A DNA stretch of 64,000 nt from Candidatus Colwellbacteria bacterium CG10_big_fil_rev_8_21_14_0_10_42_22 (GTDB lineage Bacteria > Patescibacteriota > Minisyncoccia > UBA6257 > Colwellbacteraceae), in assembly GCA_002773725.1 (NCBI GenBank), contig PFAH01000002.1, positions 59,590-123,589 of the forward strand, read 5' to 3'. Positions 4,287 to 56,519 of this stretch are shown piece after piece. The notes below the pieces were generated by a model. That model worked only from the letters and a program-made list of their open reading frames with translations, searched no databases and was not told the DNA's origin. Each line of letters begins with the position of its first letter. Position 1 is the first letter of the stretch. The position numbers were made by a program, and so were the translations under genes.

Positions 4287-6791
4287 TTACACTAGTGCGG
4301 CAGACCTTTTGTCACGTCCAGCGACAAAGTAACGAACTGCAAAGTAGATCAAGAGGATGAGTAAGAACAGCCACAAGATCGGGCTCGTGAAGAAATCACG
4401 CAAGCTGTCTAGAAGTAAAGCGGTGAAAGTTCCGCCAACCCTACCGCTAATCAACTCTCCAAAAGTGTGTTCGTCAATAACGGTCACAACTTTACGAGTT
4501 CCGCTGTCTGTGTATTCCACGTCAGCAGTAAAGCGGATAGTGTCATTTACATCGACACTGTTGCTTACCTCTGTGGTAATCACGAATGAATCTTGTTCGT
4601 CCGGACTGATGGTGCCGATATTAAATGTCAGCACATCATTTCGGTCATTGTCGGCATTCGGATCTGCATCAACGAAATCAAGCTCACGAGGGAGATCAAC
4701 TAACAGTTGTGCATCGGTGAAGGTTTCATCGGTGCGATTCTCGTAAGAAACTGTGTAGCTAATCTCGCGACTATCCTCAGCGCCGATTCTGTCAGCGTCA
4801 AGGGTAATTATGAGAGCTTCTATTTCTGGCTCTTCTTCTACTTCAACCGTCCTGAAAACTTCAACAATTCGGGTAACTACGTTTACTATCGGAGCTCCAG
4901 TACGGAAACTTCTAACAAAACCGTAGTCGGTACCCTCACTGTTTCTAGCTACAGCGCGGTAGTAGTAAGTAGTTTGAGAAGCGAGACCGGTGATTCTGTA
5001 GTCGAAATCGATATTATCGTTATCGCCTATATCATCGCGAGAGGTCTCCCTGTTAAGATTAGAGACACTAGTGCCCCATTGGAACCACACATCTGTGTCG
5101 TTACCATTGGCATCAACATCGCCCTCTAGAGTAGCTTCGTTTTGTCCAACTCCAGTCGGAGCCAAAGTAGTTACATCGGGCCCTTCGTCAGATGAACTTC
5201 CACCGTTTTCGTCTGTAGTAAAGCTTCTAGTAGAACCCTCATCTTCCTCACCACCGTCATCTTCTATAAAACAACGGAAGTAATACTTAGTGTCCTCGTC
5301 GAGACCAGAAATGATCTTTGTAACTATTTCATTTGTCTCTCCATCTTGAACACTTATTTTAGAGGTCTTTTCATCTAAGTCGGTGTCTTCACCCCACTCA
5401 AACCAAACATCGGCATCGTCGCCATTAGTATCAACTTCACAGCGCAAACGGGCGCTATCTTCATCTATCCTATCGGCAGACAAGGTTGTGGCGCTTGGCT
5501 TGTCGCCTGATCCACCGCCGTTATCGTCTGTAGTGAAGTTCAAAATATTACCCCTGTCTGTGCCTTCGCTATTTTTAGCTACACAGCGGAAGTAATACTT
5601 AGTGTCCTCATCCAAGTCGTCAATGTCTATTTCAACTCTTTCGTTAGTTTCATCAGCATCAACATCAACCTTAGATGTGTCTTCATCGAGATCATCGTCG
5701 TCCTCGCCCCACTCAAACCAAACTTCAGTATCATTGCCATTAGCATCTACATCACAACGCAAGGTTGCACTATCTTCGTCTACGTCAGTAGCAGAGACAG
5801 TAGTTGCCTCGGGCGCGTCTTCTGTTGGTCCGGGATCGTCATCGTCTGTAGTGAAGTTCAAAATATTACCCCTGTCTGTGCCTTCGCTATTTTTAGCTAC
5901 ACAGCGGAAGTAATACTTAGTGTCTTCGTCGAGACCGGTAGCAACTCTAGTAAAAGAGAAGGTGTCATTGTTCTTGCCAATAATTCTTACACTGGTCTCT
6001 TTATTTAAGTTGTTGCTATTCTCACCGTACTCAAACCAAGCTTCTGTGTTGGCTCCATTGGGGTCAACATCACAATGCAATGTAGCACTGTTTCTATCTA
6101 CGTTTGTAGCAGAGACAGTGGTGGCTTCGGGTGCACCCCCTGTTGGTCCAGGATTCTCGTCACCATTAACCCTGAAACTAACTACGACGAAGCCAGCGTT
6201 TCTCTCGCCGGGCTTAATATTCCCGACTGAAAGACCGCTACTATCAAGCACGTCCTCTGGGTCGCCCGAGAGAGGAACTTCGTGCACTGGGTTCCAGTGA
6301 GTGGTCTGAACAGTAGCAAGATGATCCACATCTGTAATCTTTCCGTCTCCGGTTAAATTAACAACCACTGTTTCGGCTTTCTGGGGAGCGTTATTCGCCC
6401 AGATATAACCCCTGATAACCACTTTGCGACCATCAGATGAAATAGTCGGATATATCCTCACTTTGGCACCGTTGGCTCTATCGTCACCGGTATTATTGAA
6501 AAATAATACGGCAGCAACTTTATCACCAAGTTCGGCGTTTACGCTTTGATTTTGCCAATTATAGGTTCCTCCTTGATTAGTGGAGCTCCCTACTCGTAGA
6601 AAATCATAAGGTTGAGAGCCCTGATTAAATACGGCAGCGGCGAAAACGGTGTTAATCAACGGTAGCGCTAAGTTAGCTGCCACAAATAAACCAGTTACAA
6701 TGGCTATCAATCCTTTTCTTTGACCTTTTAACAAATTAGTCATTTGTTTTTTGTATTTATTTTTAACCTTTATGCGAGCTTTATTACCCAC
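4287..6791 (-). CDS. Large acidic cell-surface repeat protein with N-terminal signal anchor, four tandem ~106-aa repeats and a C-terminal TM plus basic tail
   Basis: 834 aa. N-terminal hydrophobic segment GLIAIVTGLFVAANLALPLINTVFA. Repeats of ...ATTVSATxVDxxSATLxCDVDxNGxDTEVWFEWGED...DTKYYFRCVAKNSEGTDRGNILNFTTDD (fibronectin-III/Ig-like feel). C-terminus ILWLFLLILLIYFAVRYFVAGRDKRSAALV. Confidence 0.65.
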   Translation of the reverse strand: MGNKARIKVKNKYKKQMTNLLKGQRKGLIAIVTGLFVAANLALPLINTVFAAAVFNQGSQPYDFLRVGSSTNQGGTYNWQNQSVNAELGDKVAAVLFFNNTGDDRANGAKVRIYPTISSDGRKVVIRGYIWANNAPQKAETVVVNLTGDGKITDVDHLATVQTTHWNPVHEVPLSGDPEDVLDSSGLSVGNIKPGERNAGFVVVSFRVNGDENPGPTGGAPEATTVSATNVDRNSATLHCDVDPNGANTEAWFEYGENSNNLNKETSVRIIGKNNDTFSFTRVATGLDEDTKYYFRCVAKNSEGTDRGNILNFTTDDDDPGPTEDAPEATTVSATDVDEDSATLRCDVDANGNDTEVWFEWGEDDDDLDEDTSKVDVDADETNERVEIDIDDLDEDTKYYFRCVAKNSEGTDRGNILNFTTDDNGGGSGDKPSATTLSADRIDEDSARLRCEVDTNGDDADVWFEWGEDTDLDEKTSKISVQDGETNEIVTKIISGLDEDTKYYFRCFIEDDGGEEDEGSTRSFTTDENGGSSSDEGPDVTTLAPTGVGQNEATLEGDVDANGNDTDVWFQWGTSVSNLNRETSRDDIGDNDNIDFDYRITGLASQTTYYYRAVARNSEGTDYGFVRSFRTGAPIVNVVTRIVEVFRTVEVEEEPEIEALIITLDADRIGAEDSREISYTVSYENRTDETFTDAQLLVDLPRELDFVDADPNADNDRNDVLTFNIGTISPDEQDSFVITTEVSNSVDVNDTIRFTADVEYTDSGTRKVVTVIDEHTFGELISGRVGGTFTALLLDSLRDFFTSPILWLFLLILLIYFAVRYFVAGRDKRSAALV
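5165..6125. repeat. Tandem near-identical DNA repeats (period about 318 bp, 3+ copies) inside the surface-protein gene
   Basis: Identical about 75-nt blocks (gtgaagttcaaaatattacccctgtctgtgccttcgctatttttagctacacagcggaagtaatacttagtgtc) start at 5533 and 5851; related copies occur near 5270 and 5908. Confidence 0.7.
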
Positions 6792-6935
6792 ATTTAAACC
6801 CTTGACGCTTTATTTTCAAGAGTTTAGGCGTAGGTCCCTCCGACTATTTTGTGCGCGAACACACATTTCGTCGGAGGGATTTTTCGGATCTTAGACAGAC
6901 CCGAATATAGCCAGGACGCTACCTACACGGAATCG

Positions 6936-8195
6936 TTACGGGATAGTCGGCTGACTACCACCACCCTCGGTGGTGGCGGACGACTCTGTCGGGATGGTGG
7001 GCTGTCCGGAGCAAGCTTCGGGGTTCTCCACCTCCGGGACGTTGAACCTATAGGAGCGACTCGTCGATGCTCCAAGGTTGTCCGTCGCCGTCACGGTGAC
7101 GGTGTGCCGACCCAAGTAGTACGGGCCATTTGCCAGAGAGAACACAACCGACCTCACGCCGTCTGGATCGGAAACGTTCGCTCCGAAGACGACCTCTGCG
7201 AAACCTTCACAATTCGTCTCCCCGAGCGTCGCCGAAATCGAGATGATTTCAGGGCCGACATTTGGGGTCGTAGTCGTGGTCGGTTCAGTGGTCGTCGGCA
7301 CCTCGGTCGTCGTCGAACCCTCGGTGGTCGTCGTTGAGCCACCACCCCCTCGGGTTGTCGGCGGTTCATAGGGCGCCGTCGACGAAGGAACCTCGCAGGT
7401 GCGGCATGGAATGCCGCACTCATTGAGAACGCCGAGCACCATCAGACGAAACTCGTCCGCTTCCCACGCTCCGGGGTGATCCAGAAGATGAGCATCGATG
7501 AGGGCGTACACCCTGTCGATGTCTCCTTGGATGTAGCCGAGCTTTTCGCTCAGCCACCCGCGAAGATTCGCGATTTCCTGGTCGTTGCCAGCCACGTCCG
7601 CCTTCAGGGCGCCAACACGCGGACCGAAGTCGAGTGTGAACCGCTCGAAGTCAGAGCGAAGGTTGGCGATGGAAGTCACGACTCCGTCGATGCGGTCGTC
7701 GACGGCGCTGATATCACCGGCATTCCGGCCGGCGATGGCGAGCGCCAACACCGTGCCAATCGTGGCGATCAAGATCGCCACGGCACCAAGACCGGCGAGG
7801 AACCGACGACCGTTCCGGCCGTGGGCCTCACCCCGCAAACGCTCATCGCGCTCGCGGTCGAGGTCTCGACGGAGCCGGTCTTCGACGGCCTGATCGGCCG
7901 CCTGGACTTGACCCCAGAGACGACCGAATGCGTTTGTGATCGCATTCGCCGTCTCTCCCGGAATCCGAGCCACGTCGGCACGGATGTCGGAGACCGCGGT
8001 CTCCACTGCATTGATACGGCGACGCGCCGACTTGTCTTTGGACATCTTGTTTCCCTTCTTTCGGGGAGCCTGACGCTTATGGTGATAACAGTAGGGCGGG
8101 TTGGTACCCACTCTAATGCGATTACCGCAGTGGGCTCCGTCCTTTCTATTACCATTGCACAGCATCAGACCCTCCTCTCTAGGGAGTGCTAGCAT
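6936..8195 (-). CDS. GC-rich island protein: cytoplasmic N-region, single TM, extracytoplasmic domain, Thr-rich linker and Ig-like C-terminal domain. The start is uncertain; the internal Met (MSKDKSARRR) at about 8045 may be the true start.
   Basis: 419 aa. TM segment FLAGLGAVAILIATIGTVLALAIAG. Linker TTTTEGSTTTEVPTTTEPTTTTTP. C-terminal beta-rich VVFSLANGPYYLGRHTVTVTATDNLGAS. The region's GC is markedly above the flanks, so overlapping opposite-strand ORFs (7476-8192+, 6849-7337+, 7154-7423-, 7585-7893+, 7769-8155-) are taken as stop-poor GC artefacts. Confidence 0.45.
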   Translation of the reverse strand: MLALPREEGLMLCNGNRKDGAHCGNRIRVGTNPPYCYHHKRQAPRKKGNKMSKDKSARRRINAVETAVSDIRADVARIPGETANAITNAFGRLWGQVQAADQAVEDRLRRDLDRERDERLRGEAHGRNGRRFLAGLGAVAILIATIGTVLALAIAGRNAGDISAVDDRIDGVVTSIANLRSDFERFTLDFGPRVGALKADVAGNDQEIANLRGWLSEKLGYIQGDIDRVYALIDAHLLDHPGAWEADEFRLMVLGVLNECGIPCRTCEVPSSTAPYEPPTTRGGGGSTTTTEGSTTTEVPTTTEPTTTTTPNVGPEIISISATLGETNCEGFAEVVFGANVSDPDGVRSVVFSLANGPYYLGRHTVTVTATDNLGASTSRSYRFNVPEVENPEACSGQPTIPTESSATTEGGGSQPTIP

Positions 8196-8240
8196 GTGCT
8201 AAGTGTCCACCATTTCTGACGGACACTTAGCACATGCTAG
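8189..8240. repeat. Perfect 20-bp inverted repeat (CTAGCATGTGCTAAGTGTCC ... GGACACTTAGCACATGCTAG) with a 12-nt loop at the right edge of GC-rich island A
   Basis: Both arms read directly; the reverse complement of the right arm equals the left arm. It overlaps the annotated ATG (8195-8193) of the island ORF. Confidence 0.8.
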
Positions 8241-8557
8241 GTGTAGATTTTTTGTCCTGCTATTTTCCTATATGAATAGGTTGATAAATGTACAAAGCAG
8301 AAAGCGACAGAATTACTGCCTTTTACCTCTTATTTGGTACTTTCTACCATATGGTAAGTTTATACCACGACTTGACTAAAAAGTCAAGACATATGTGGCC
8401 ATTACTATTCTACCTCGTTAGAAGCAGGGCGCAAGAGTACGTCCGACAGCTCCCTAGGGGTAGCTTGATTTTAACGGGGCTCAAGTAAACGGGATTGACT
8501 ATATCCCCATAATTACTGATAATAAGCCCGTTAAACCTTATGCCGTTAGAGATTATT

Positions 8558-8581
8558 ATGTATTACGCATACGTAATACAT
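8558..8581. promoter_or_regulatory. 10-bp perfect inverted repeat with 4-nt spacer (ATGTATTACG-cata-CGTAATACAT) about 80 bp upstream of rpmE; candidate operator
   Basis: Read directly. The half-site words resemble the CGTAAT/ATTACG words of Firmicutes Zur boxes, but in swapped order. Confidence 0.3.
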
Positions 8582-8663
8582 AGCAAAAAGGGGTTTTAAT
8601 GAAGAATTTTAGATTTCTTTAAGCTAATCTAATCACGAAGTCATTACAAATAAGTTAAATTTA

Positions 8664-8987
8664 ATGAAAAAGGATACCCACCCAACATACTACAAAAACT
8701 CAAAAACTCTGTGTTCATGCGGGAAAACGCATGAAATTGGCTCTACTCGGGAGAAAATGGAGGTAGAAATTTGTTCTAACTGTCACCCCTTCTTCACGGG
8801 TCAAGAACGACTTGTTGATACTGCTGGAAGAGTAGAAAAGTTTAAGGCGCGACGAGCGAAGGCGGAACTCACAAAGGCATCTATTAAAAGCAGGTCTGCT
8901 TCCAAAAGAAAACCAAAAATAGCCAAAACCGAAAAAATTAAGCCCACTAAGAAACCCAAGAAGACCCCCGAAAAGACATCCAAGTAA
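8664..8987 (+). CDS. rpmE: 50S ribosomal protein L31 (zinc-ribbon C+ form) with an unusually long Lys-rich C-terminal extension
   Basis: MKKDTHPTYYKNSKTLCSCGKTHEIGSTREKMEVEICSNCHPFFTG matches the L31 HPxY...CxCG...CxxCH signature. An extra tail of about 35 residues follows (KRKPKIAKTEKIKPTKKPKKTPEKTSK). Confidence 0.85.
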   Translation: MKKDTHPTYYKNSKTLCSCGKTHEIGSTREKMEVEICSNCHPFFTGQERLVDTAGRVEKFKARRAKAELTKASIKSRSASKRKPKIAKTEKIKPTKKPKKTPEKTSK

Positions 8988-9036
8988 ATCCCCCGAAAGG
9001 CGCTTACTTTGTAAGCACCACGAGGCAGGTGGACCT

Positions 9037-9777
9037 ATGAGTGACAAAGCAATACTCGAAATAAGGGCTGGTGCGGGCGGTGACGAAGCCGCTATTTTTG
9101 CGGGCGACCTAGCCCGCATGTATCAGCGTTTCGCTGAAAATGAGGGTTGGAAATTTACTGTTTTAGACACAAGTCAAACCTCCTTGGATGGCTATAAATC
9201 TTTCGTGGCTCAAATTAGGGGTGAGGGAGTATATGAAAAACTTAGGCAGGAATCTGGAGTACATCGTGTCCAACGTATTCCTAAAACAGAAAAGTCAGGC
9301 CGTATTCATACGTCAACTGCTTCTGTAGCAATAATGCCCGTAGTTGAGGCCCAAGAAGTAGCTATTAATCCAAGCGATCTAGACGTTTCTTTCTTCCGTT
9401 CAAGTGGTCCGGGTGGTCAAAACGTTAATAAAGTAGAAACGGCCGTAAGGATAGTCCATAAGCCAACCGGGGTTGTTGTAAGCTCGCAAGCTGGACGAAG
9501 TCAACAAAGTAATCGTGAGGTTGCCCTAGAGGTCCTTCGTTCTAAACTCTATGAAGCTCAAATCGAGAAACAGGGGCAAGAGATGGGAGAGTTGAGGCGT
9601 AGCCAAATAGGATCAGGTGACCGATCGGAGAAGATTCGCACATACAATTTTCCTCAAGACCGCATCACCGATCATCGTATCGGTAAGAAGTGGCACAATT
9701 TAGAAAAAATCCTTGAAGGAGATATAACGCCCATCATTAAGGCCTTTCAAAAAGCTAAAAAGGAAAGCGAGGGTTAA
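9037..9777 (+). CDS. prfA: Peptide chain release factor, RF1-type (PxT motif PKT, GGQ motif), lacking the N-terminal domain 1
   Basis: 246 aa begins EIRAGAGGDEAAIFAGDLARMYQRF, which corresponds to about residue 105 of canonical RF1. It also carries RVQRIPKTEKSGRIHTS and SGPGGQNVNK. An in-frame stop (8986-8988) lies 48 nt upstream, so there is no room for domain 1. Confidence 0.7.
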   Translation: MSDKAILEIRAGAGGDEAAIFAGDLARMYQRFAENEGWKFTVLDTSQTSLDGYKSFVAQIRGEGVYEKLRQESGVHRVQRIPKTEKSGRIHTSTASVAIMPVVEAQEVAINPSDLDVSFFRSSGPGGQNVNKVETAVRIVHKPTGVVVSSQAGRSQQSNREVALEVLRSKLYEAQIEKQGQEMGELRRSQIGSGDRSEKIRTYNFPQDRITDHRIGKKWHNLEKILEGDITPIIKAFQKAKKESEG

Positions 9778-9780
9778 AAA

Positions 9781-11220
9781 TTAACTTTCTAATAGCTTGA
9801 TATCTCTCTCGAATTGAGCTGCATGCTCTATAACGGCACGCCCATAAACATCGGTGCACACATATCTTTGCCAATTACCTCCACAATAATATCTAGCTGC
9901 CGCAGCCAACTCGTTTGATGAAGCTCCAGAATCTTTAAGATAAAGTCCTGATGCTACGAAGGCGTCCAAATTGTTCCACGGATTGGCGGGTCTATTGCCA
10001 GTTACCGCCTCCACGCGCGCCTTATACCCTATCCAAGTTGATGGAATGAACTGGGCAGGACCCATTGCGCCTCCATAAGATCCGTCTGATGTAATCGGAC
10101 AAGAGACATAAACTTTGTCCGGGTCTATGTTCAGTTCTTTTACGATTTGTAAGAATGGAGTTATATCGTCTCGTCTGGATTCTGGGGGTCCAGGCGCCAT
10201 AGCGGTCTTATAATTACACTGCCCCACATTCCTACCAAGGGCGGACTCTCTATCAAGCACAGCCAAAATAAGAGCAGCCCTCACGCCCGTTCTCTTTTCT
10301 GCATACTTAGCAAAATTGTAGGCCTCTTCAAATGTCATTTGCCCACCACCCAATAGGCGAAAGATTCTAGCTCTAATTTCAGCAGCGCTTCTTTCGGTAA
10401 CGGTTAGGAGTTGTTGGTAAGTGGCCTCTTCGCCCTTGGTCACATTAAGCAAGGTGTCTTTTTCTGACTTCACAGAATCAACTTCCTGTTTTTGCTTAAC
10501 CTGATAAAGACGAAGCGCCTCCACGTCGGATTTCTCAAGAGCCAGTATTTCTTTATGAGTAATCAACTCCTCTTGGGACTCGGCAAGCTCTATTAGGGTA
10601 TCTTTTAAGCCCTCTTGCACCACCAGAAGATCATTAACGCTAGTAAAGAAATCGGAAAGGTTTTGGTTAGCTAATAAGATTTCTAATATACCCTTTTCGT
10701 CGTCTCGGTTCATTCGTTGAACTACGTCCGAAAGGATGGTCTTGCTACGCCCGATCCTGCTCCTAACCTCTTCTATTTTTGAGGCAGTGCTTTTGATTTG
10801 TCCATTTAATTTATTTAAAGAAGAATTAATTGTATCTATCTGGCCATTAATACTGGCTATACGAGCATTGAGGCGGTTTATCTCTCCCTGAAGGGTGTCT
10901 CCCTTTTTTTGATATTCTTTAATCGTCTCCTGATATTGCTCTATCTGATATTCATACTGTTGAAGTTGGTCTTCCAGCTGTTCACGTTCTTGCTCAACAG
11001 TTAAGGCCCTAACACCTCCGCCAATCGGAGCAAAAACAGAACCGTTGGTCATAAGCACAAATCCAATAGCCACCAAAGTTCCTAAAACAGGCCTTATATA
11101 AGGAACTCGTGTCTTTGTCTTAGAGATAGGACTCAAGTTAACGCGCCCCGAACGTGGGGCAAAAACATCAACCCTCGACCCTCTCCTTATATCTATCAAT
11201 AAGCGAGGTTTGGGTCTCAT
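9781..11220 (-). CDS. Membrane-anchored coiled-coil protein with a C-terminal MltB-like lytic transglycosylase domain
   Basis: N-terminal TM (VLGTLVAIGFVLM), a long heptad-rich coiled coil, and a C-terminal ...SDGSYGGAMGPAQFIPSTWIGY... (the GAMGxxQFMPSTW motif of MltB-family enzymes). Confidence 0.6.
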   Translation of the reverse strand: MRPKPRLLIDIRRGSRVDVFAPRSGRVNLSPISKTKTRVPYIRPVLGTLVAIGFVLMTNGSVFAPIGGGVRALTVEQEREQLEDQLQQYEYQIEQYQETIKEYQKKGDTLQGEINRLNARIASINGQIDTINSSLNKLNGQIKSTASKIEEVRSRIGRSKTILSDVVQRMNRDDEKGILEILLANQNLSDFFTSVNDLLVVQEGLKDTLIELAESQEELITHKEILALEKSDVEALRLYQVKQKQEVDSVKSEKDTLLNVTKGEEATYQQLLTVTERSAAEIRARIFRLLGGGQMTFEEAYNFAKYAEKRTGVRAALILAVLDRESALGRNVGQCNYKTAMAPGPPESRRDDITPFLQIVKELNIDPDKVYVSCPITSDGSYGGAMGPAQFIPSTWIGYKARVEAVTGNRPANPWNNLDAFVASGLYLKDSGASSNELAAAARYYCGGNWQRYVCTDVYGRAVIEHAAQFERDIKLLES

Positions 11221-12013: not shown

Positions 12014-12886
12014 TTATAGCATCCCGTTAAACAATTTCAATCTGTCTTTAACCACTTCATACACCCCCTCTTCTGATGCTGGGAAAACTTTATAAGGAGC
12101 TACTTGGGTTTTATCTTCCAACGCTCCTTCTATACCTTTGCGCCAAGCTACTCTTAATTCTGTATTTATATGAATTATGCGTATCCCCGCTTCTATGGCA
12201 GATCTGAAATCCTCGTCACTAATACCCGAACCGCCATGCAAGACCATGGGCACGCCGATTGATTTACCAATTGAACGAATCAATTCTATATCTAATTCGG
12301 GATTGGGAGTATTTTTAAACATTCCATGGAGATTGCCTACTGCTGGAGCAACTAAATCTACTCCCGTTTCTTCCACAAATCTTTTAACTTCTTCGACTGT
12401 CGGTAGCGCATCCCCACTTACCACCGCTCCTTCGGGAACTTCCTCTAAAATCTTGGATGATTTTCCTATATATCCCAACTCTCCTTCCACAAACACATCT
12501 TTGTCTATTCTTTTAACTAAACCGACCGCTTCTTTTGTTTTGTTGATATTCTCTTCTAAACCCTCGCTGGCTACGTCAAAGATAACAGCATCGTAGCCAG
12601 CCACCACTGCCTCCTTTATTTTCTCTAAAGATCTAAAATGGTCAGCATTTAAAAATATTGGATGATCTAGTTCTTTGCGAGCGTCCAAAACCATTGAGAC
12701 AGCTACGTTTAAATCTATGAATTCTGCTTCGCCTTCAGAGGTGCCAATGATTACAGGCACGCCCAACTCTTTCGCAGCTTTAGTAATGCCATGAAAAGCC
12801 GCTATGTCTGAAGTATTAAAATGCCCTAAGGCCACCTCTCTTTCTTTAGCCCACTCAAGAGCAGCTCTTAAAGTTTTTATCTTCAT
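12014..12886 (-). CDS. fba: Class II fructose-bisphosphate aldolase
   Basis: ALGHFNTSDIAAFHGITKAA..., ...NADHF..., ...LHGGSGISDEDFRSAIEAGIRIIHINTELR are characteristic of class II FBA / tagatose-bisphosphate aldolase. Confidence 0.8.
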   Translation of the reverse strand: MKIKTLRAALEWAKEREVALGHFNTSDIAAFHGITKAAKELGVPVIIGTSEGEAEFIDLNVAVSMVLDARKELDHPIFLNADHFRSLEKIKEAVVAGYDAVIFDVASEGLEENINKTKEAVGLVKRIDKDVFVEGELGYIGKSSKILEEVPEGAVVSGDALPTVEEVKRFVEETGVDLVAPAVGNLHGMFKNTPNPELDIELIRSIGKSIGVPMVLHGGSGISDEDFRSAIEAGIRIIHINTELRVAWRKGIEGALEDKTQVAPYKVFPASEEGVYEVVKDRLKLFNGML

Positions 12887-17837: not shown

Positions 17838-18302
17838 CTATTCAAATCGAATGCTAACATCTGTACCCTTTTTTATACCTAGAGCACTAGCTCTACCCGA
17901 TGCTATTTCCAACACGTAATTTACTCTCTGCGGAGAGGGATATCTCTTCTTTTTATAAAGTGGCACATTAATCTCGGGATCAACCCGGTGCTCAACTCCG
18001 ACCACTTGATTATCTTTAATCCAAATAATATCTATAGGGATTAACATATCCTTCATCCAAAACTTTCTATTTGTAGGTGAGTCAAAAACAAAAAGCATGC
18101 CTTCGTTTTGAGCTAACGCATCTTCGCCCCCCAAACCCTTAGCTTGTTGAATGGCCGTGTTTGCGACATCTACCCTAAACTCCTGCCCACTGACCACAAT
18201 GGTCGCCTTTTTATATTGCGCTTTTGGTAACCAATCGCCTCTTAGAAACCAAAAGATAAGAAACGCTGTTGCTACTAATCCTAATATATAAATGGATTTC
18301 AT
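17838..18302 (-). CDS. DUF192 (COG1430) family protein with N-terminal signal/anchor
   Basis: ...GMLFVFDSPTNRKFWMKDMLIPIDIIWIKDN... matches the conserved DUF192 core. Confidence 0.6.
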   Translation of the reverse strand: MKSIYILGLVATAFLIFWFLRGDWLPKAQYKKATIVVSGQEFRVDVANTAIQQAKGLGGEDALAQNEGMLFVFDSPTNRKFWMKDMLIPIDIIWIKDNQVVGVEHRVDPEINVPLYKKKRYPSPQRVNYVLEIASGRASALGIKKGTDVSIRFE

Positions 18303-38008: not shown

Positions 38009-39352
38009 TTACAATTCAAAACCTTGTGTTGAGTTAGATCTCTCTGCACCACTAAGTTCAAGCGTGGCATATCCTACAATCATACCCATAATAAACCACA
38101 GCCCCTTTAGAGTTAGTATATCAATAAATATTCCGCTAATCAGAAAAAATAAAAAAATTATTGATAGGGTTATTCCAATAAAATCTTTCTTTTTTGATAT
38201 CTTAATAGCATTCCGAGAAACTACACCAAGAAATATAATCCACAGAAGAAATCCTCCCCATCCAGCCGTAAGTGGGACTTGGAGCCAAAAGTTATGTGCT
38301 CCTTTTCCGTGCTGAATTGGGTTCCAGTTTTGGTATGCCGGGCCAAATCCGAGTGGAGACTTTATTATATTGTCTAAACCCTGCCTCCATAAATCTCCGC
38401 GAGAGATATCAAAAGAATCTATTTGAGTATCTTTATAAAAAGAGGCGTACAATTCATTATCCCCTTCTAAAATCCAATCTTTTACGACTATCTCGCGTAA
38501 ATTCTCATTGGATAGAACCGGTCTTATAGATCTTTCATATATAGAAATTTGAGTATCTTTAGGCAAAACAATAAATGCCATTGAGATCGAAAAGATAAAA
38601 AGGCAAAAAAGGATAAATATGGCTTTGGTTCTTTCTCGTGAAAATCCTTGAGATAAATACAAGATTAAAAGAAGAATAAATGATGCGACGAAGGCAAGAA
38701 TACTACCTCTTGAATTTGTCCATAAGAAAAGGGGCGTCACGAGAACAATGTGGAAAACGCCAAGCCACCGTAAATGCGATTCCCTATAGAGATATAGAAC
38801 GGAGGCAATCAAAAGGCTAATAGCAATGAAGCTCGCTGTGATATTGGGATCATCTTGCATCCCAACAAGTCGTGCATTGTCAATAAAGAAACTCTCCCAC
38901 CTTGGAACAAATGCAGCGAAAAATAACAACGGCGAGGTCAGCATCGCCAAAAGCCCCCAACGAAGACCTCTCTCGTGCCTAATAACAACATACGTTGAGA
39001 TAAAAAAGACCAGAATAGCAAGGGCGATGTTGGCGTATCCAAGATATACTTGTGGCGCAAATAATAACCATTTAGAAAACACCGATATGCTTCCTATAAG
39101 CATAAAGAGGCATAACGCACCAAGGAGCATACCATAAAGAACCCTCGTCGATTTTAAGCTATACCACAAGGAACGACTTTCCGCAGATATTATAAATTCA
39201 AATAATATAAGCAAAAAGAGGGCCACTAAAAAAACCTCGAATGGTTTTAGCGTACTCGTTAAGAAGGGTTTACCTTGTCGCCAAACAAGACTAAAAATTG
39301 TCAGAGCAAATATGGCAGGTGTTACGTAGCGACGATAATCAGGCAAGCTCAT
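38009..39352 (-). CDS. O-antigen ligase / Wzy-like polytopic membrane protein
   Basis: 447 aa with more than 10 TM segments, ...WTNSRGSILAFVASFILL... and ...HGKGAHNFWLQVPLTAGWGGFLLW... (Wzy_C-like). Confidence 0.55.
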   Translation of the reverse strand: MSLPDYRRYVTPAIFALTIFSLVWRQGKPFLTSTLKPFEVFLVALFLLILFEFIISAESRSLWYSLKSTRVLYGMLLGALCLFMLIGSISVFSKWLLFAPQVYLGYANIALAILVFFISTYVVIRHERGLRWGLLAMLTSPLLFFAAFVPRWESFFIDNARLVGMQDDPNITASFIAISLLIASVLYLYRESHLRWLGVFHIVLVTPLFLWTNSRGSILAFVASFILLLILYLSQGFSRERTKAIFILFCLFIFSISMAFIVLPKDTQISIYERSIRPVLSNENLREIVVKDWILEGDNELYASFYKDTQIDSFDISRGDLWRQGLDNIIKSPLGFGPAYQNWNPIQHGKGAHNFWLQVPLTAGWGGFLLWIIFLGVVSRNAIKISKKKDFIGITLSIIFLFFLISGIFIDILTLKGLWFIMGMIVGYATLELSGAERSNSTQGFEL

Positions 39353-40011
39353 AATTTAGACCTCTGTGTAATCGTGGATCTCTCTGCGCCGACAACTTCC
39401 TTAATTACAAAATCTTTGCCGTCAAATTCAAGCACGGCATATCCTCCGGTTCTAAGAGCCCCGTCTCTCAAGTTTTCATGCTTTCCCAAACTGAGATGCA
39501 ATAGAAACATTCTTATAGCATACCTATGAGCGACTATTAAAACTTTTTCCCCGAGATGGCTAGTGGCTACTTCTCTTAAGTAAGTAATGAACCTATCAAG
39601 TAGTTCTTTGTCGGATTCGATGGATGGATGCGCTTTATGCACCCACCTCTCTTCAGTACTTAATTGATTATCAAATTTCTCAAACTCGTCTTTTAGAACC
39701 TCCATATATTCACCATGATTCTTGCCTTCAAATATTCCAAAATATTTTTCTCTTAAGAATGGAGACGTCTTAATTTCTATACCTCGACTTAACCTTATTA
39801 TTTCCGCGGTACGCCTTGTCCTATCTAAATCAGAAGAATAAATAGCATCAAATTTAACACCCTTAAAAACATCGGCCACTTCTTCCGCTTGTCTTTCTCC
39901 TTTCTCAGTTAACGGTGAGTTCGTGTGCCCTTGAACGATTTTATTGACATTGGCTTCGGATTCTCCATGTCGAACCAAATAGATTGTACACACCCCATTT
40001 TCTTTATTCAT
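39349..40011 (-). CDS. Histidine phosphatase family protein (phosphoglycerate-mutase-like)
   Basis: IYLVRHGESEANVNKIVQGHTNSPLTEKGERQAEEV is the RHG catalytic motif. A 4-nt overlap with the upstream gene indicates an operon. Confidence 0.8.
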   Translation of the reverse strand: MNKENGVCTIYLVRHGESEANVNKIVQGHTNSPLTEKGERQAEEVADVFKGVKFDAIYSSDLDRTRRTAEIIRLSRGIEIKTSPFLREKYFGIFEGKNHGEYMEVLKDEFEKFDNQLSTEERWVHKAHPSIESDKELLDRFITYLREVATSHLGEKVLIVAHRYAIRMFLLHLSLGKHENLRDGALRTGGYAVLEFDGKDFVIKEVVGAERSTITQRSKL

Positions 40012-40485: not shown

Positions 40486-41472
40486 TTATTTCGGTTGGTA
40501 ATGAATAATCTGACTGCCAGAACTCTCGAACTTAAACGGGACATGAACTAAATCGCTTAAGGCCTCTCTAACTTTATCTTGGAGCTCTGGTTTAACAAAA
40601 AATAATATGAATCCTCTGCCACCAGCACCGAGCAGTTTGCCTCCAAGCGCGCCGGCTTTAGTACCCTTATCATAGATCTCATCTATTTTCGAATTCGAGA
40701 TAAGGTCGGCTAATGTTCTTTTGAGCTTCCATGTCTCGTCTAAAAGATGTCCGAAATCTTCAATACTATCGTTCTTAAATAATATTTTTTCTGCATCAGT
40801 AACTAAACTGGCCATTTTTTGAAGTTCTGTGCTTTTCTTGGGAGTGTTTTTTATTTGCTCGGCCGCTACCTTAAGGCCCATCTTAGTAGTGCCGGTAAAA
40901 AATAGCATAAGGTGGCTTTGCAACTCATCAATTCTTTGTTTTTGTAATGCTAGTGGAACCACCTCGAATTCTTCTTCTCCACCAAAGATAATTTTATTAA
41001 ATCCGCCGAAGGCGACGGCGATTTGATCCTGAATTCCCCCATCTTCTTTCAAAACGTTCCGTTCTATGTGAATAGCTTCCGAAGCAAGCTGTTCTTTACT
41101 AGGCAGATGTCCTTTCAGTGTATGTAGAGCATTTAGAAGGCCGACTGCGAAAGAAGAGCTGGAGCCCATCCCGGACCAAGCTGGTAAATCTGCAGAATTG
41201 TGAATCTCCATACCATCAGAAATATTTAAAAATTTTAAAACCTCGCGGACAACCGGATGCTCAATTTCATCAATATTTTTAACCGCCTCTATTTTAGACC
41301 AAACAATTTTATATTTATTATCAAAAAATGGCGGAAGGTAACGACAGTTAAGATAGGAATATTTGTCTATTGTCGTTGAAAGGACAACTCCTCCGTTTTC
41401 CCTATACCAAACCGGATAATCAGTCCCTCCTCCGAAGAAAGATATTCTAAATGGCGTTCGTGAAATAATCAT
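40486..41472 (-). CDS. GHMP-family sugar kinase (COG2605; D-glycero-D-manno-heptose 7-phosphate kinase HddA-like)
   Basis: RTPFRISFFGGGTDYPVWY and ...PAWSGMGSSSSFAVGLLNAL... (GHMP ATP-binding loop). Confidence 0.75.
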   Translation of the reverse strand: MIISRTPFRISFFGGGTDYPVWYRENGGVVLSTTIDKYSYLNCRYLPPFFDNKYKIVWSKIEAVKNIDEIEHPVVREVLKFLNISDGMEIHNSADLPAWSGMGSSSSFAVGLLNALHTLKGHLPSKEQLASEAIHIERNVLKEDGGIQDQIAVAFGGFNKIIFGGEEEFEVVPLALQKQRIDELQSHLMLFFTGTTKMGLKVAAEQIKNTPKKSTELQKMASLVTDAEKILFKNDSIEDFGHLLDETWKLKRTLADLISNSKIDEIYDKGTKAGALGGKLLGAGGRGFILFFVKPELQDKVREALSDLVHVPFKFESSGSQIIHYQPK

Positions 41473-46777: not shown

Positions 46778-47866
46778 TTATAGCGGCTTGCCCATCATCT
46801 TAAAGATATCCTCAAAGCGCTGTTTGGTAGAATGTTCGCGTATAGTGCGCTCGTATCCAGCCTTGGCAATTGCTTCACGTTCTTCGTCGTGCATTAAATA
46901 ATATTTGATTTTTTCTACTAAGTCCTCTTTATTCTCGTACACAACAATCTCTTCCCTTAGTTTGTAATAATCTCTCATATCATCTGCATCTTGAGTCATC
47001 TCCAATGTTCCACACGCCGGTACTTCAAAATGGCGCGATTTAACCTGGGCATTTCTTTTCATGAACCACGAACGTATGTTGTCAAAGAAATTGTGAATAT
47101 CCAGCTTGATGGGTAGGCCTCCCTCCCCAAAATATGCCCTACGGAAAAATAAGCGCACTATCGGACGCCAACCGAAATAAAACGCCGGCGTATTTAAAGA
47201 AAGGGCTATCTTGCTTCGATTAATAATCCTGATTAGCTCTTCTTGGCTAACTGGTCCCTCGGGCCAACCCACACCGCGAACAAACACATCGATACCCTGT
47301 TTTCGCAGATAATGGATGAGTTGTTCTCTTGGTTTAGACCAAAGGCCAACAAAACTGACATCGATATCTTTTTTGGCATTCTCCAACTTGTGATACGTTT
47401 CTAAATCTACACCGGGCTGATGATGAATGATGTTCTTGCATCCAATGCTTTTATACTTCTTTATCGCCCGACCATCATAAGTGAGAATCCAATTAAAACA
47501 ATCTGCAAAATGGCGACTTACTCGCTCCCAACGCCAAGTATCGTCGTCCCCAATATAAACAAGTTCTGTGGAGGTCTCGTTTTTTACCCTACAATAAACT
47601 TTTTTACCAAGATCATATTCATTGAACCCCGCTAGACATACATCTGGTTTTTTAGTCATAATGTATTCCCAAAACATTTTTCGGGCTCCCTCAATCCCCT
47701 TAGTCATAATGGCTTCGTCGATATAAAAGATGTCTGCCGAGTGCCCATGCTCTTCCGCAACAGCTTTAAGAGGTAGATATTCCAAATAGTAGCTCGTAGA
47801 ACGTCTCCCTAGATTATTCCAGCCCCTATCGTATTCGTACTTATAATTGACTAATAATATTTTCAC
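46778..47866 (-). CDS. CgeB-like glycosyltransferase (GT1-fold; DUF3880 + Glyco_trans_1_2-like), paralog of 49576-50619
   Basis: Shares long blocks with 49576-50619 (e.g. ...DVSFVG...VFVRG.GW.EG..S..E...I...SKIALSLN...FE..A.G......D..DM..Y......EIV.Y....DL..KIKYYL.H.EER.AIAKAGYER...EH). Confidence 0.6.
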   Translation of the reverse strand: MKILLVNYKYEYDRGWNNLGRRSTSYYLEYLPLKAVAEEHGHSADIFYIDEAIMTKGIEGARKMFWEYIMTKKPDVCLAGFNEYDLGKKVYCRVKNETSTELVYIGDDDTWRWERVSRHFADCFNWILTYDGRAIKKYKSIGCKNIIHHQPGVDLETYHKLENAKKDIDVSFVGLWSKPREQLIHYLRKQGIDVFVRGVGWPEGPVSQEELIRIINRSKIALSLNTPAFYFGWRPIVRLFFRRAYFGEGGLPIKLDIHNFFDNIRSWFMKRNAQVKSRHFEVPACGTLEMTQDADDMRDYYKLREEIVVYENKEDLVEKIKYYLMHDEEREAIAKAGYERTIREHSTKQRFEDIFKMMGKPL

Positions 47867-51648: not shown

Positions 51649-51900
51649 TTATTCAATGTTCTTTTTCAAGGACTTTGTGTCCGACTCTTTTATAAATATT
51701 TTCATCAAAATAGTGTTGCCTATTACCATCACCGTAAACATAGGCACGGCAACTATTAATTTTCCCGTAAAGATAATACTGACAATAAACCCCCAAACCA
51801 AAGTTGCTATTCGCGTTTTCCAAAATGAACTCATTCTTTTGTTTCTTTCTTTGAGCTTTCTAAGGTTAGAGGTTAATTCCAGAAAAGCCAAACTCATCAA
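51649..51900 (-). CDS. Possible small membrane protein
   Basis: 83 aa, ...RIATLVWGFIVSIIFTGKLIVAVPMFTVMVIGNTILM... It overlaps the neighbouring gene end by 35 nt, so it is low confidence. Confidence 0.25.
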   Translation of the reverse strand: MMSLAFLELTSNLRKLKERNKRMSSFWKTRIATLVWGFIVSIIFTGKLIVAVPMFTVMVIGNTILMKIFIKESDTKSLKKNIE

Positions 51901-54109
51901 ATTTAATTAGACCATTTTTTAGATTATCTACGTCCGAGTCCTGAATCTCTAGAATTAATCTATCCTCAAACTGCTTTGATTGAATATCTAATAAAAGCTC
52001 TTCTATTTTGATTGCGCGCACTAATGTCTTGCGGAAATCAATTAAGTTTTTTTCTTTATAAAAGTATTTGAGGTATCTTTCTCCAATTTTCCTGTAAAAA
52101 ATTAAATATTTTCCTCTAAAAGGAATCTCGTTTTCCAAAAAAAGTTTTTCTATCTTTTCATTTGTTTGATATTCGCCATTCCAATCTATTGGACCTAAAA
52201 GAGCTGTTTCATAAAGCCCGCCCACCATAGAGTTGGGTTCTAGGGCAATTAATTCTCTGGTTGTCTTTTTGACTTCATCTAATTTGCCCTGACTAATTAA
52301 ATTTTGGGCGAGATTATAGTATAAATCTTGCCTACCCGGGGCTAAATCAATGGCTGTACGCAATTTTTCTTCTCCGACCTTGATATAATCTAACCTGTTT
52401 TGTAAGTCGCCAACGCTCTCGTAAAAATAACTCATCTCCAATAAGTGTCGTGGCTCTGCTGGCTCATTTAATATAACTTCTTCCATTAGTTTAATGGATT
52501 TGTTTATAAGGAGAGAGGCCTTGGGATTGTTGAGATTGGCAGTGGCAAAAGAAAATACCTTTGATCTAATTTCCGCTTGAGCATAATTATAAGGTAGGGT
52601 TATTCTATCTATATCCACCGTAACTCCTGTCAGATCTTTAGCTAGCAAGTGCTGAATAAACACCTTCATCTGGAAAGCTGGAATAGCGCTGTTATAGATA
52701 AAGAAAGTTATAAACAATAATGCGAAAGAGGCAAATAAATATTTTATTAGCAAAATACGTCTAGGCGAATCGAACATTGTGGGTTTATCAGATTTATTCA
52801 AATAGATAACAAAACCCAAGAACATAAATAGAGGCACGAACGTAGATACTTGATCAAATAGAAATAAATTTTGGACAAAATAGGCAGTAGCAAAAAACAA
52901 AACCGCTGTATTGATTAGTATTTTTCGCGCAACCAGTTTTTCATCGTTCTCTTGAATTTTCTTAAATGCAGAACGAAAAACGAAAAACCATATACTCATA
53001 AAAGCGACTAAACCAAACAAGCCGTGCATGGTTATCACGTCAATTAATCTGTTGTGAGCTCTGTCAAACCAAAGAGTTTCATATTTCTGAAAAGATGGAT
53101 CAAAATATTTGTTGAAAGCTATATTGAAATTATCTGGACCCCAACCAAAAAATGTCCTACCCCATCCTTCATTACTAGGCCTGATTGAATTTAAACTAAT
53201 CTTGGCAGATATAAGGCGAGATTGAACAGTGCTATCCTCAAAAGATATCTCCGACAACCTATCAAATCCAGGCACCCTATCCCAAACAGGGCTTCTGAGA
53301 GTAAGTCCGAAAATGGATATAAAAATAGCTGTTAGAATAAGTATTTCAATTGATAGGTTACGCATTCTAACGCCTCGAAACTTAACTTTCCCGGCCCTTT
53401 TCGCAAGGTATATAGAAGCAACGATTATGCCAGCGAATATGCCCACAAAAGATCCTCTAGTATTGGCAACCGCCAAACCAGCAATGACAAAAAGCATTGT
53501 TAGATAGACGGCGTAGCGCCAATAGCGCCTATCTTCATAAGCAAGGATCACAAGCCCCGCAAAAATCACAAATATAAGATACGTAGCTATAAAGGCGGGG
53601 TTTCCAACGAAAGAACCGTTCGGACGCCAACCCGTAACAATAAACATTGTTACGGCGTCTAGAGCTACCAGCAATCCAGTAAATACAGACAAAGCCATAA
53701 AAATAAGCCAATCCTTTTTTTCAAAAACTAATAAGGTTCCAATTAATAGGGCTAATAAAACCACTAGGTTCGTATACCCTTCGCCCCTTTCTATTGTGCC
53801 AAAAATAGCCCTGGTTATATTTGGAGCCGTCAAGGTGCTTACAAAAGCTAGTCCGATATAAGCAAAAACGCTTAGAAAAATATAATCTTTAAATAATCCG
53901 AAGTTAATTTTTTCTAAAAAGTTTTTTCCTTTCTTGCTAAATACAAGAAAAGTTAAAATCATCCAGAACAAAGCAACTATTAATCTCAAATATAATGTTT
54001 TTCCGAATATAAAAGGAAAAAGCGTATTTTGAGTGACTATAAGAGGAGTCAATGCTAGTGATATAAGTAACAGCTTTGCCAATTTTGTTATGCTTAGTGT
54101 CTTTGTCAT
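51866..54109 (-). CDS. O-antigen-ligase-like polytopic membrane protein with a long C-terminal soluble (TPR-like) domain; paralog 1 of 3
   Basis: 747 aa, about 12 TM segments, ...FFGWGPDNFNIAFNKYFDPSFQKYETLWFDRAHNRLIDVITMHGLFGL... (Wzy_C-like RAHN block), helical-repeat C-terminus. Confidence 0.6.
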   Translation of the reverse strand: MTKTLSITKLAKLLLISLALTPLIVTQNTLFPFIFGKTLYLRLIVALFWMILTFLVFSKKGKNFLEKINFGLFKDYIFLSVFAYIGLAFVSTLTAPNITRAIFGTIERGEGYTNLVVLLALLIGTLLVFEKKDWLIFMALSVFTGLLVALDAVTMFIVTGWRPNGSFVGNPAFIATYLIFVIFAGLVILAYEDRRYWRYAVYLTMLFVIAGLAVANTRGSFVGIFAGIIVASIYLAKRAGKVKFRGVRMRNLSIEILILTAIFISIFGLTLRSPVWDRVPGFDRLSEISFEDSTVQSRLISAKISLNSIRPSNEGWGRTFFGWGPDNFNIAFNKYFDPSFQKYETLWFDRAHNRLIDVITMHGLFGLVAFMSIWFFVFRSAFKKIQENDEKLVARKILINTAVLFFATAYFVQNLFLFDQVSTFVPLFMFLGFVIYLNKSDKPTMFDSPRRILLIKYLFASFALLFITFFIYNSAIPAFQMKVFIQHLLAKDLTGVTVDIDRITLPYNYAQAEIRSKVFSFATANLNNPKASLLINKSIKLMEEVILNEPAEPRHLLEMSYFYESVGDLQNRLDYIKVGEEKLRTAIDLAPGRQDLYYNLAQNLISQGKLDEVKKTTRELIALEPNSMVGGLYETALLGPIDWNGEYQTNEKIEKLFLENEIPFRGKYLIFYRKIGERYLKYFYKEKNLIDFRKTLVRAIKIEELLLDIQSKQFEDRLILEIQDSDVDNLKNGLIKFDEFGFSGINL

Positions 54110-54169
54110 ACTAAAGATAAAGAAGTTTGCTGTTCGTGAATCATAATTATTAAAAGTTCAAGCAACTAA

Positions 54170-56443: not shown

Positions 56444-56519
56444 TTCTTAAGAGCAATTACTAATTATTATATTTTGTCCTATTCTGTAGGATAACATGCC
56501 AAAAAACCAGCTAAAGAAT

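Follow-up and report, generated by a model that had tools for sequence, protein, structure and literature searches.

In the textbook architecture, a class I release factor, bacterial or organellar, includes a domain 1. Can a bacterium terminate translation with a release factor that has none of it? The question is raised by a gene in a 64,000-nucleotide (nt) stretch of Candidatus Colwellbacteria bacterium CG10_big_fil_rev_8_21_14_0_10_42_22 (contig PFAH01000002.1, positions 59,590 to 123,589), the whole of which is called the window here. On the plus strand, an open reading frame (ORF) at 9037..9777 runs from ATG to TAA and encodes a class I release factor of 246 amino acids (aa). Judged from its sequence, the protein is a release factor 1 (RF1) missing the entire domain 1, approximately 100 residues. 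It probably serves as the housekeeping RF1 of its lineage, working independently of RF3.

Domains 2, 3 and 4 of RF1 are complete

The gene and the motifs discussed below are as follows.

9037..9777, plus strand: prfA without domain 1 (RF1 domains 2, 3 and 4 only), from the ORF, Pfam, NCBIfam, phmmer, AlphaFold2 and Foldseek
9076..9087, plus strand: G14-G15-D16-E17, tip of the first helix; G14/E17 align with G116/E119 of T. thermophilus RF1
9271..9312, plus strand: codon-recognition loop with Q79, P82-K83-T84 and I90-H91-T92, from the phmmer alignment with T. thermophilus RF1
9280-9288, plus strand: PKT, the PxT 'anticodon' tripeptide, residues 82-84, from the alignment
9412..9420, plus strand: GGQ catalytic motif, G126-G127-Q128, from sequence and alignment; invariant in the family
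9622..9654, plus strand: switch-loop region RSEKIRTYNFP, R196-P206, identical in T. thermophilus and T. maritima RF1
9685..9690, plus strand: basic pair K217-K218 of domain 4 (HRIGKKWHN), specific to the truncated clade by group comparison

Among the NCBIfam models, the two for prfA ranked first, NF001859 with 382.2 bits (cutoff 400; profile positions 105-344 of 347) and TIGR00019 with 372.1 bits (cutoff 423.25; positions 113-353 of 361). Both scores miss the equivalog cutoff because about 100 profile positions, those of domain 1, stay unmatched. The RF2 model TIGR00020 followed with 247.8 bits (cutoff of 370 missed), the PrfH model TIGR03072 with 84 bits (below its cutoff of 166.65), and the ArfB model with 54 bits over residues 105-140 only (cutoff 100). 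The tripeptide is PKT and not the RF2-type SPF. The assignment to the RF1 type by an earlier note on this DNA, which had pointed to PKT and GGQ and suggested comparing the RF1, RF2, PrfH and ArfB families, is upheld by this ranking. In Pfam, only the C-terminal half of PCRF is matched (profile positions 101-194 of 194, E 2e-45), after which the RF-1 (GGQ) domain is matched in full (E 3e-41).

The phmmer search, in which the best RF1 chains of the Protein Data Bank (PDB) reached E 6e-83, aligned residues 4-243 without gaps to residues 106-345 of T. thermophilus RF1 (E 7e-81) and residues 2-236 to residues 85-319 of T. maritima RF1. The protein starts a few residues ahead of the first strand of domain 2, with 7 residues before EIRAG; its predicted equivalence to a start at about residue 105 of RF1, also in the earlier note, agrees with the first matched positions in both prfA profiles and in T. 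thermophilus RF1. With an offset of 102 residues to the latter in the phmmer alignment, Q79 corresponds to Q181, P82-K83-T84 to P184-V185-T186, I90-H91-T92 to I192-H193-T194, and G126-G127-Q128 to G228-G229-Q230. In the RF1-70S structure (PDB 4v63), G116/E119 of T. thermophilus RF1 recognize the first base of the stop codon, and together with the other aligned residues they serve to read U1, A2 and the third purine and to catalyse hydrolysis. By alignment, all the RF1 decoding and catalytic residues are intact. Relative to canonical bacterial RF1 (TIGR00019 / NF001859; PDB 4v63), the window protein has the same domains 2-4 at 50-52% identity and keeps the PxT loop, the G/E tip, the counterparts of Q181 and I192-H193-T194, GGQ and the switch loop; the difference is the canonical ~100-residue domain 1, which it does not have.

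An AlphaFold2 model was built from the family alignment, with a predicted local distance difference test score (pLDDT) of 84.5 and a predicted template modelling (TM) score (pTM) of 0.70. Its predicted fold superposes on domains 2-4 of ribosome-bound RF1, with a TM-score of 0.88 and a root-mean-square deviation of 2.6 Å to the T. thermophilus protein in Foldseek, where PDB 4v63 was hit 9; many of the matched deposited RF1 chains themselves have no modelled domain 1. The conformation of the model is the open, ribosome-bound one (TM 0.88) versus the closed crystal form (TM 0.58-0.62). We discounted this as evidence on the conformational equilibrium, since it may mirror ribosome-bound structures in the training data.

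UAG usage and gene position point to a housekeeping RF1

Among the 56-60 called genes of the window, 36-38 end with TAA, 14-16 with TAG and 6 with TGA. UGA is in use, the point that the earlier note had raised for checking, and each of the six TGA stops lies inside a 4-nt ATGA or GTGA overlap with the next gene.

12883-12886, 18299-18302, 39349-39352, 40008-40011, 41469-41472 and 47863-47866: TGA stops within overlaps

With ~11 kb more of this genome and the Colwellbacteria loci L088-L090 included, the counts become TAA 63, TAG 37 and TGA 13 (n=113), which are not independent because the three loci are syntenic with the window. UAA and UAG together end 100 of the 113 genes (~88%), UAG is commoner than UGA, and 12 of the 13 TGA stops sit in ATGA/GTGA overlaps. 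In most bacteria, TAG is used less than TGA (PMC8789281). The Colwellbacteria loci seem to avoid UGA stops that stand free of an overlap. In the other members of the truncated clade described below, TGA accounts for 42 of 155 stops, and 25 of these 42 are not part of an ATGA overlap; given this freer use, UGA is a stop codon there, and an RF2 is expected. UAG, for its part, ends a quarter to a third of the genes, which requires a working RF1. No release factor paralog was found in the 64-kb window, which was searched by tblastn with the window protein, in ~11 kb of flanks or in 80 related loci.

The position of the gene leads in the same direction. The gene for ribosomal protein bL31, rpmE, lies directly upstream with a spacer of 49 nt. 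It also precedes the truncated RF1 in L083, L088, L089 and L090, and it is found upstream of truncated, short and several full-length Patescibacteria prfA genes alike. From this shared rpmE-prfA position, the gene is the positional ortholog of prfA. Its placement right after rpmE, remarked on in the earlier note, is thus seen in the sequence and is ordinary synteny, common to full-length Patescibacteria RF1 genes.

As the housekeeping RF1, the factor would act like canonical RF1, binding the A site at UAA or UAG via domains 2 and 4 and bringing GGQ into the peptidyl-transferase centre. Without domain 1, it would make no contact with the N-terminal domain of L11 and would undergo no RF3-driven recycling, leaving the post-termination ribosome spontaneously and unaided. 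Such a mode would fit a slow-growing lineage presumably without prfC, in which domain 1 probably decayed in steps once selection for it ceased. According to the work of Mora et al. 2003 and Vestergaard et al. 2005, as far as it is cited in PMC1586002, N-terminally truncated E. coli RF1 keeps its codon specificity, releases peptides in vitro and functions in vivo; it cannot stimulate nucleotide exchange on RF3, for which domain 1 is needed. Helices alpha2 and alpha3 of E. coli domain 1 touch the N-terminal domain of L11 and, in the RF3 complex, domain 3 of RF3 (PMC3677378). RF3 is missing in 72 of 191 surveyed genomes, most small ones included, and Bacillus, Mycobacterium and Mycoplasma are among the RF3-less bacteria; weaker RF binding has been proposed to compensate for its absence (PMC1780047). 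Dissociation independent of RF3 is a recognized pathway (PMC10287982).

Several points weigh against a housekeeping, RF3-independent role. The genome was read over 64 kb plus ~11 kb of a 435,746-bp contig, and a second prfA, a separate domain 1, or prfB, prfC and prmC could lie beyond. Even bacteria with very small genomes and many without RF3, Bacillus, Mycobacterium and Mycoplasma included, generally retain domain 1. If so, the loss of RF3 alone is no explanation for the loss of domain 1. In addition, E. coli RF1 is inactive on ribosomes without L11 (reviewer comment, PMC1586002), so the L11 contact may matter and compensation for it may be needed.

The stop-codon counts also allow a more far-reaching reading, in which Colwellbacteria-type lineages run termination almost wholly on a minimal RF1, with UGA part-way to unassignment and the wider apparatus dismantled; we regard it as improbable. 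If it were true, and RF2 were absent, truncated or marginal, termination-reinitiation at overlaps would be the last use of UGA, and the stepwise loss of domain 1 would belong to a broader breakdown that also takes in RF3, the RF-L11 contact and RF2.

Comparison with PrfH and rescue factors

There is a slim chance that the gene is instead a specialized paralog, PrfH-like or a rescue factor, which stands beside a full-length prfA elsewhere in the genome, beyond the window and flanks that were searched. Such factors exist: PrfH (RF-H; TIGR03072) is a class I factor with a special role, without domain 1 and with a codon-recognition-type domain and GGQ (PMC1586002; PMC6514570), and the PDB entries 9mor and 7sa4 were among the matches. 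The absence of domain 1 is the sole defining feature of PrfH that the window protein shares. PrfH has a divergent recognition loop, pairs with RtcB2 and rescues damaged ribosomes, whereas the window protein and its family conserve the canonical PxT loop, the decoding residues and the switch loop. The neighbours of prfA are rpmE and a gene with an SLT domain, and no RtcB was found in the Colwellbacteria loci examined (L081-L083, L088-L090). The PrfH score of 84 bits against 382 for prfA, the rpmE-prfA slot of full-length Patescibacteria genes, a branch inside the Patescibacteria RF1s, the heavy use of UAG that demands a functional RF1, and the failure to find a second release factor gene in the window, the flanks and 13 related loci all argue against a paralog.

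The rescue factors ArfB, ICT1 and mtRF-R (C12orf65), matched by phmmer at E 1e-5 to 1e-9, resemble the window protein in having a GGQ domain without domain 1. They have no codon-recognition domains and carry a basic C-terminal tail. In the window protein, by contrast, domains 2 and 4 are complete and a tail of this kind is absent.

Graded loss of domain 1 in Patescibacteria

The distribution of the truncated form was followed in a contig scan with one genome per species, which gave 80 RF1 loci; each ORF and N-terminus was re-derived. The lengths fall into the following groups.

239-249 aa: the nine closest loci, 62-69% identical, labelled Liptonbacteria, Jorgensenbacteria, Saccharibacteria or simply Patescibacteria
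267 and 270 aa: two loci, with a leader of just ~25-30 residues
292 aa: one locus
315-329 aa: many other Patescibacteria, in which helix one and a portion of helix two are missing
341-360 aa: a few Patescibacteria
352-364 aa: most loci of other phyla

The forms with a reduced domain 1 (315-329, 292 and 267-270 aa) are the closest longer relatives of the window protein, with 54-61% identity and the same rpmE-prfA synteny; ahead of EIRAG they have ~25-85 residues versus 7 in the window protein. In a neighbour-joining tree restricted to RF1 domains 2-4, a single clade within the Patescibacteria RF1s unites the window protein with all nine proteins of 239-249 aa, and the forms of 267, 270 and 292 aa are placed apart, among those of ~320 aa. 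The labels of the clade members include Colwell-, Wolfe-, Lipton- and Jorgensenbacteria. The tree therefore indicates that complete loss of domain 1 happened once, in the ancestor of the clade, with further erosion occurring independently elsewhere. As far as lengths and tree can tell, the erosion of domain 1 in Patescibacteria went in steps and took place more than once. The earlier note had proposed a reduced termination machinery, and for RF1 itself this graded shortening bears the proposal out.

A library of 50%-identity representatives, in which the truncated clade collapses to a few clusters, gave matches that start at target residue 2-23, 31-54, 70-86 or ~105-120. The top matches in this library, P0121 and P0122, are RF1s of full length in which ~120-160 residues are duplicated internally in tandem. 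They were considered as tandem truncated factors and rejected, the duplications being most likely assembly artefacts kept as cluster representatives.

That domain 1 persists as a separate small protein, joined to the rest non-covalently after a split of the gene, is very unlikely. In favour of a split, the domain is a flexible, independently folding helical unit (PMC1586002), and the search for it covered a part of the genome, namely the window and ~11 kb of flanks, together with the 11 loci that bear a truncated or 267-270-aa prfA. There, tblastn and a hidden Markov model (HMM), both based on the N-terminal domains of longer RF1s from Patescibacteria and other phyla, found no domain 1 at E < 0.05 (best E 0.08). 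The graded lengths of the sister proteins (329, 292, 270 and 245 aa) also look like decay and not like fission.

The short N-terminus is not an artefact

The region upstream of the gene contains the following features.

8495..8523, plus strand: promoter-like site upstream of rpmE (TTGACT, 17-nt spacer, GATAAT), from a consensus scan
8664..8987, plus strand: rpmE, bL31, 107 aa; Pfam PF01197 Ribosomal_L31, E 1e-26, residues 1-63
9027..9033, plus strand: Shine-Dalgarno-like AGGTGGA, 3 nt ahead of the ATG, read from the sequence

A wrong start, a frameshift or a mis-assembly might have removed a normal N-terminus, and we hold this to be highly improbable. The earlier note had placed an in-frame stop 48 nt upstream of the ATG, which proved wrong: the TAA 49 nt upstream is the stop of rpmE itself, in another frame, and the nearest in-frame stop is the TAG at 8920-8922, 114 nt before the ATG. 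The 38 open codons between this TAG and the ATG offer no start codon (ATG, GTG or TTG) and run over the tail of rpmE, and they are therefore too short for a domain 1 of ~100 aa. A domain-1-like sequence was not found in the three frames of 8600-9060, so that the frameshift considered in the earlier note has left no remnant in any of them.

The same protein is encoded on contigs of three independent Candidatus Colwellbacteria assemblies (two from ENA, one from JGI), and it is recorded as PIR98205.1 / A0A2H0VGH2 from Candidatus Colwellbacteria of the CG10_big_fil_rev_8_21 series, which the NCBI taxonomy places in the Parcubacteria group of Patescibacteria. The lengths of its homologs agree as well. 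In the best 120 of 8000 scored homolog clusters, with identities of 69-85%, 117 are 238-258 aa long, the three exceptions being P0025 (an L31-RF1 fusion), P0080 (a probable miscalled start) and P0101 (a C-terminal extension). The ATG of most truncated relatives is preceded, at a distance of 1-25 codons, by a stop in the same frame. In L088-L090, the ATG comes directly after the rpmE stop, which also speaks against an artefact. The view that this is a genuine 246-aa protein without domain 1 thus holds, with three assemblies in agreement and all the closest relatives devoid of the N-terminus.

The junction between rpmE and prfA differs among the Colwellbacteria loci. In L088 (9998-10003), L089 (3456-3461) and L090 (5184-5189), the rpmE stop TAG abuts the ATG of prfA, whereas the window has TAA and the 49-nt spacer (8985-9039). 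The abutment suggests translational coupling. Possibly, the level of RF1 also feeds back on its own synthesis there, TAG being read by RF1. No terminator-like site was found between rpmE and prfA in the window, and a hairpin in the spacer at 9002-9016 was rejected as a regulatory element (z -0.53 versus shuffles). The promoter-like site at 8495-8523 may be the start of an rpmE-prfA transcript; it is the sole match on both strands of 8150-9950, which is weak evidence since shuffled sequences give a mean of 3.5. The bL31 of the window has a lysine-rich C-terminal tail of ~44 residues past the 65-position Pfam profile (8853-8987), and the bL31 proteins of relatives have 81-98 aa. In P0025 (Candidatus Wolfebacteria GW2011_GWA2_47_9b), a 296-aa ORF carries the first ~52 residues of bL31 fused directly and in frame to the truncated RF1 at ILEIRAG, which is either a genuine gene-joining deletion or an assembly collapse.

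Conservation and selection

An alignment of 39 truncated homologs has a mean column identity of 74% and 85 invariant columns, among which are G14, G15, E17, Q79, P82, T84, H91, T92 and GGQ. Nine of the 11 residues of the switch loop RSEKIRTYNFP are invariant. The decoding residues that vary are position 83 (K, A or E) and I90 (I/V). Compared with three Colwellbacteria orthologs, the protein is 73-80% identical, with a nonsynonymous divergence (dN) of 0.15-0.22 and saturated synonymous sites; the ratio of dN to the synonymous divergence (dS) is 0.06 and could be computed for one ortholog pair only. The gene is under strong purifying selection. That it is a decaying pseudogene in a lineage past the need of RF1 is scarcely credible, given this column conservation over diverged homologs, a dN/dS of ~0.06 with saturated dS, intact catalytic and decoding motifs, and the heavy use of UAG as a stop.

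The clade also has residues of its own. When 48 truncated RF1s were compared with 15 short and 16 full-length ones, K217-K218 proved specific to the truncated clade. The longer RF1s mostly have Ser at position 218, and all but one of the 16 longest have Ser, Asn or Thr there. It is speculation that this pair and similar clade-specific invariant residues might be candidates for compensation of the missing domain.

A natural counterpart of the laboratory deletion

The full-text literature search found no paper on a truncated RF1 in the Candidate Phyla Radiation (CPR)/Patescibacteria and none on a natural RF1 without domain 1. In the searched passages of a broad survey of release-factor diversity, only PrfH, ArfB and organellar forms are named as having no N-terminal domain (PMC6514570). 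The nearest precedent is the engineered deletion of E. coli RF1 (Mora, Zavialov, Ehrenberg & Buckingham 2003, Mol Microbiol 50:1467), which, as cited in PMC1586002, shares the architecture of domains 2-4 only. The engineered form is a laboratory deletion in a host that has RF3, whereas the form in the window is natural, clade-wide and marked by its own substitutions (K217-K218). The novelty is the fixation of a domain-1 deletion across a clade, with intermediates that record the path. To a termination specialist, this is notable and not astonishing, since the laboratory work foretold that such a factor could be viable.

As the natural counterpart of that deletion, the clade would show that domains 2-4 suffice in living cells for reading stop codons and releasing peptides. 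It also offers material to probe what domain 1 does beyond RF3, namely its contact with L11, how fast the factor arrives or departs, and the equilibrium between closed and open forms. Reconstituted translation systems may also make use of the protein as a minimal RF1 that nature already supplies. For annotation, the prfA equivalog models score under their cutoffs in these genomes, and these models also serve as phylogenetic marker genes. The database labels of the proteins are 'peptide chain release factor 1' or, for many relatives, 'PCRF domain-containing protein'.

Other features of the window

On the minus strand, 4287-8195 holds two large ORFs, one of 834 aa with faint fn3/PhoD_N matches and one of 419 aa rich in Pro, Thr and Gly. 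The G+C content is 54% over 6001-8000 versus 40-44% nearby. The contig of one independent assembly breaks at about window position 8207, the edge of this high-G+C patch, and the genes of relatives at the patch differ in size (606, 597 and 708 aa). The region looks like a strain-variable surface-protein region.

Three consecutive paralogs of 747, 757 and 751 aa lie at 51866-58775 on the minus strand, each with a Wzy_C (O-antigen ligase-type) domain, inside a cluster of glycosylation and sugar-nucleotide genes that extends over roughly 36-60 kb. Type IV pilus-type genes, prepilin-like with N_methyl, are found at 548-1703, and the T2SSE ATPase lies just past the edge in L087. The same type IV pilus-type genes flank the RF1 region in the relative L088.

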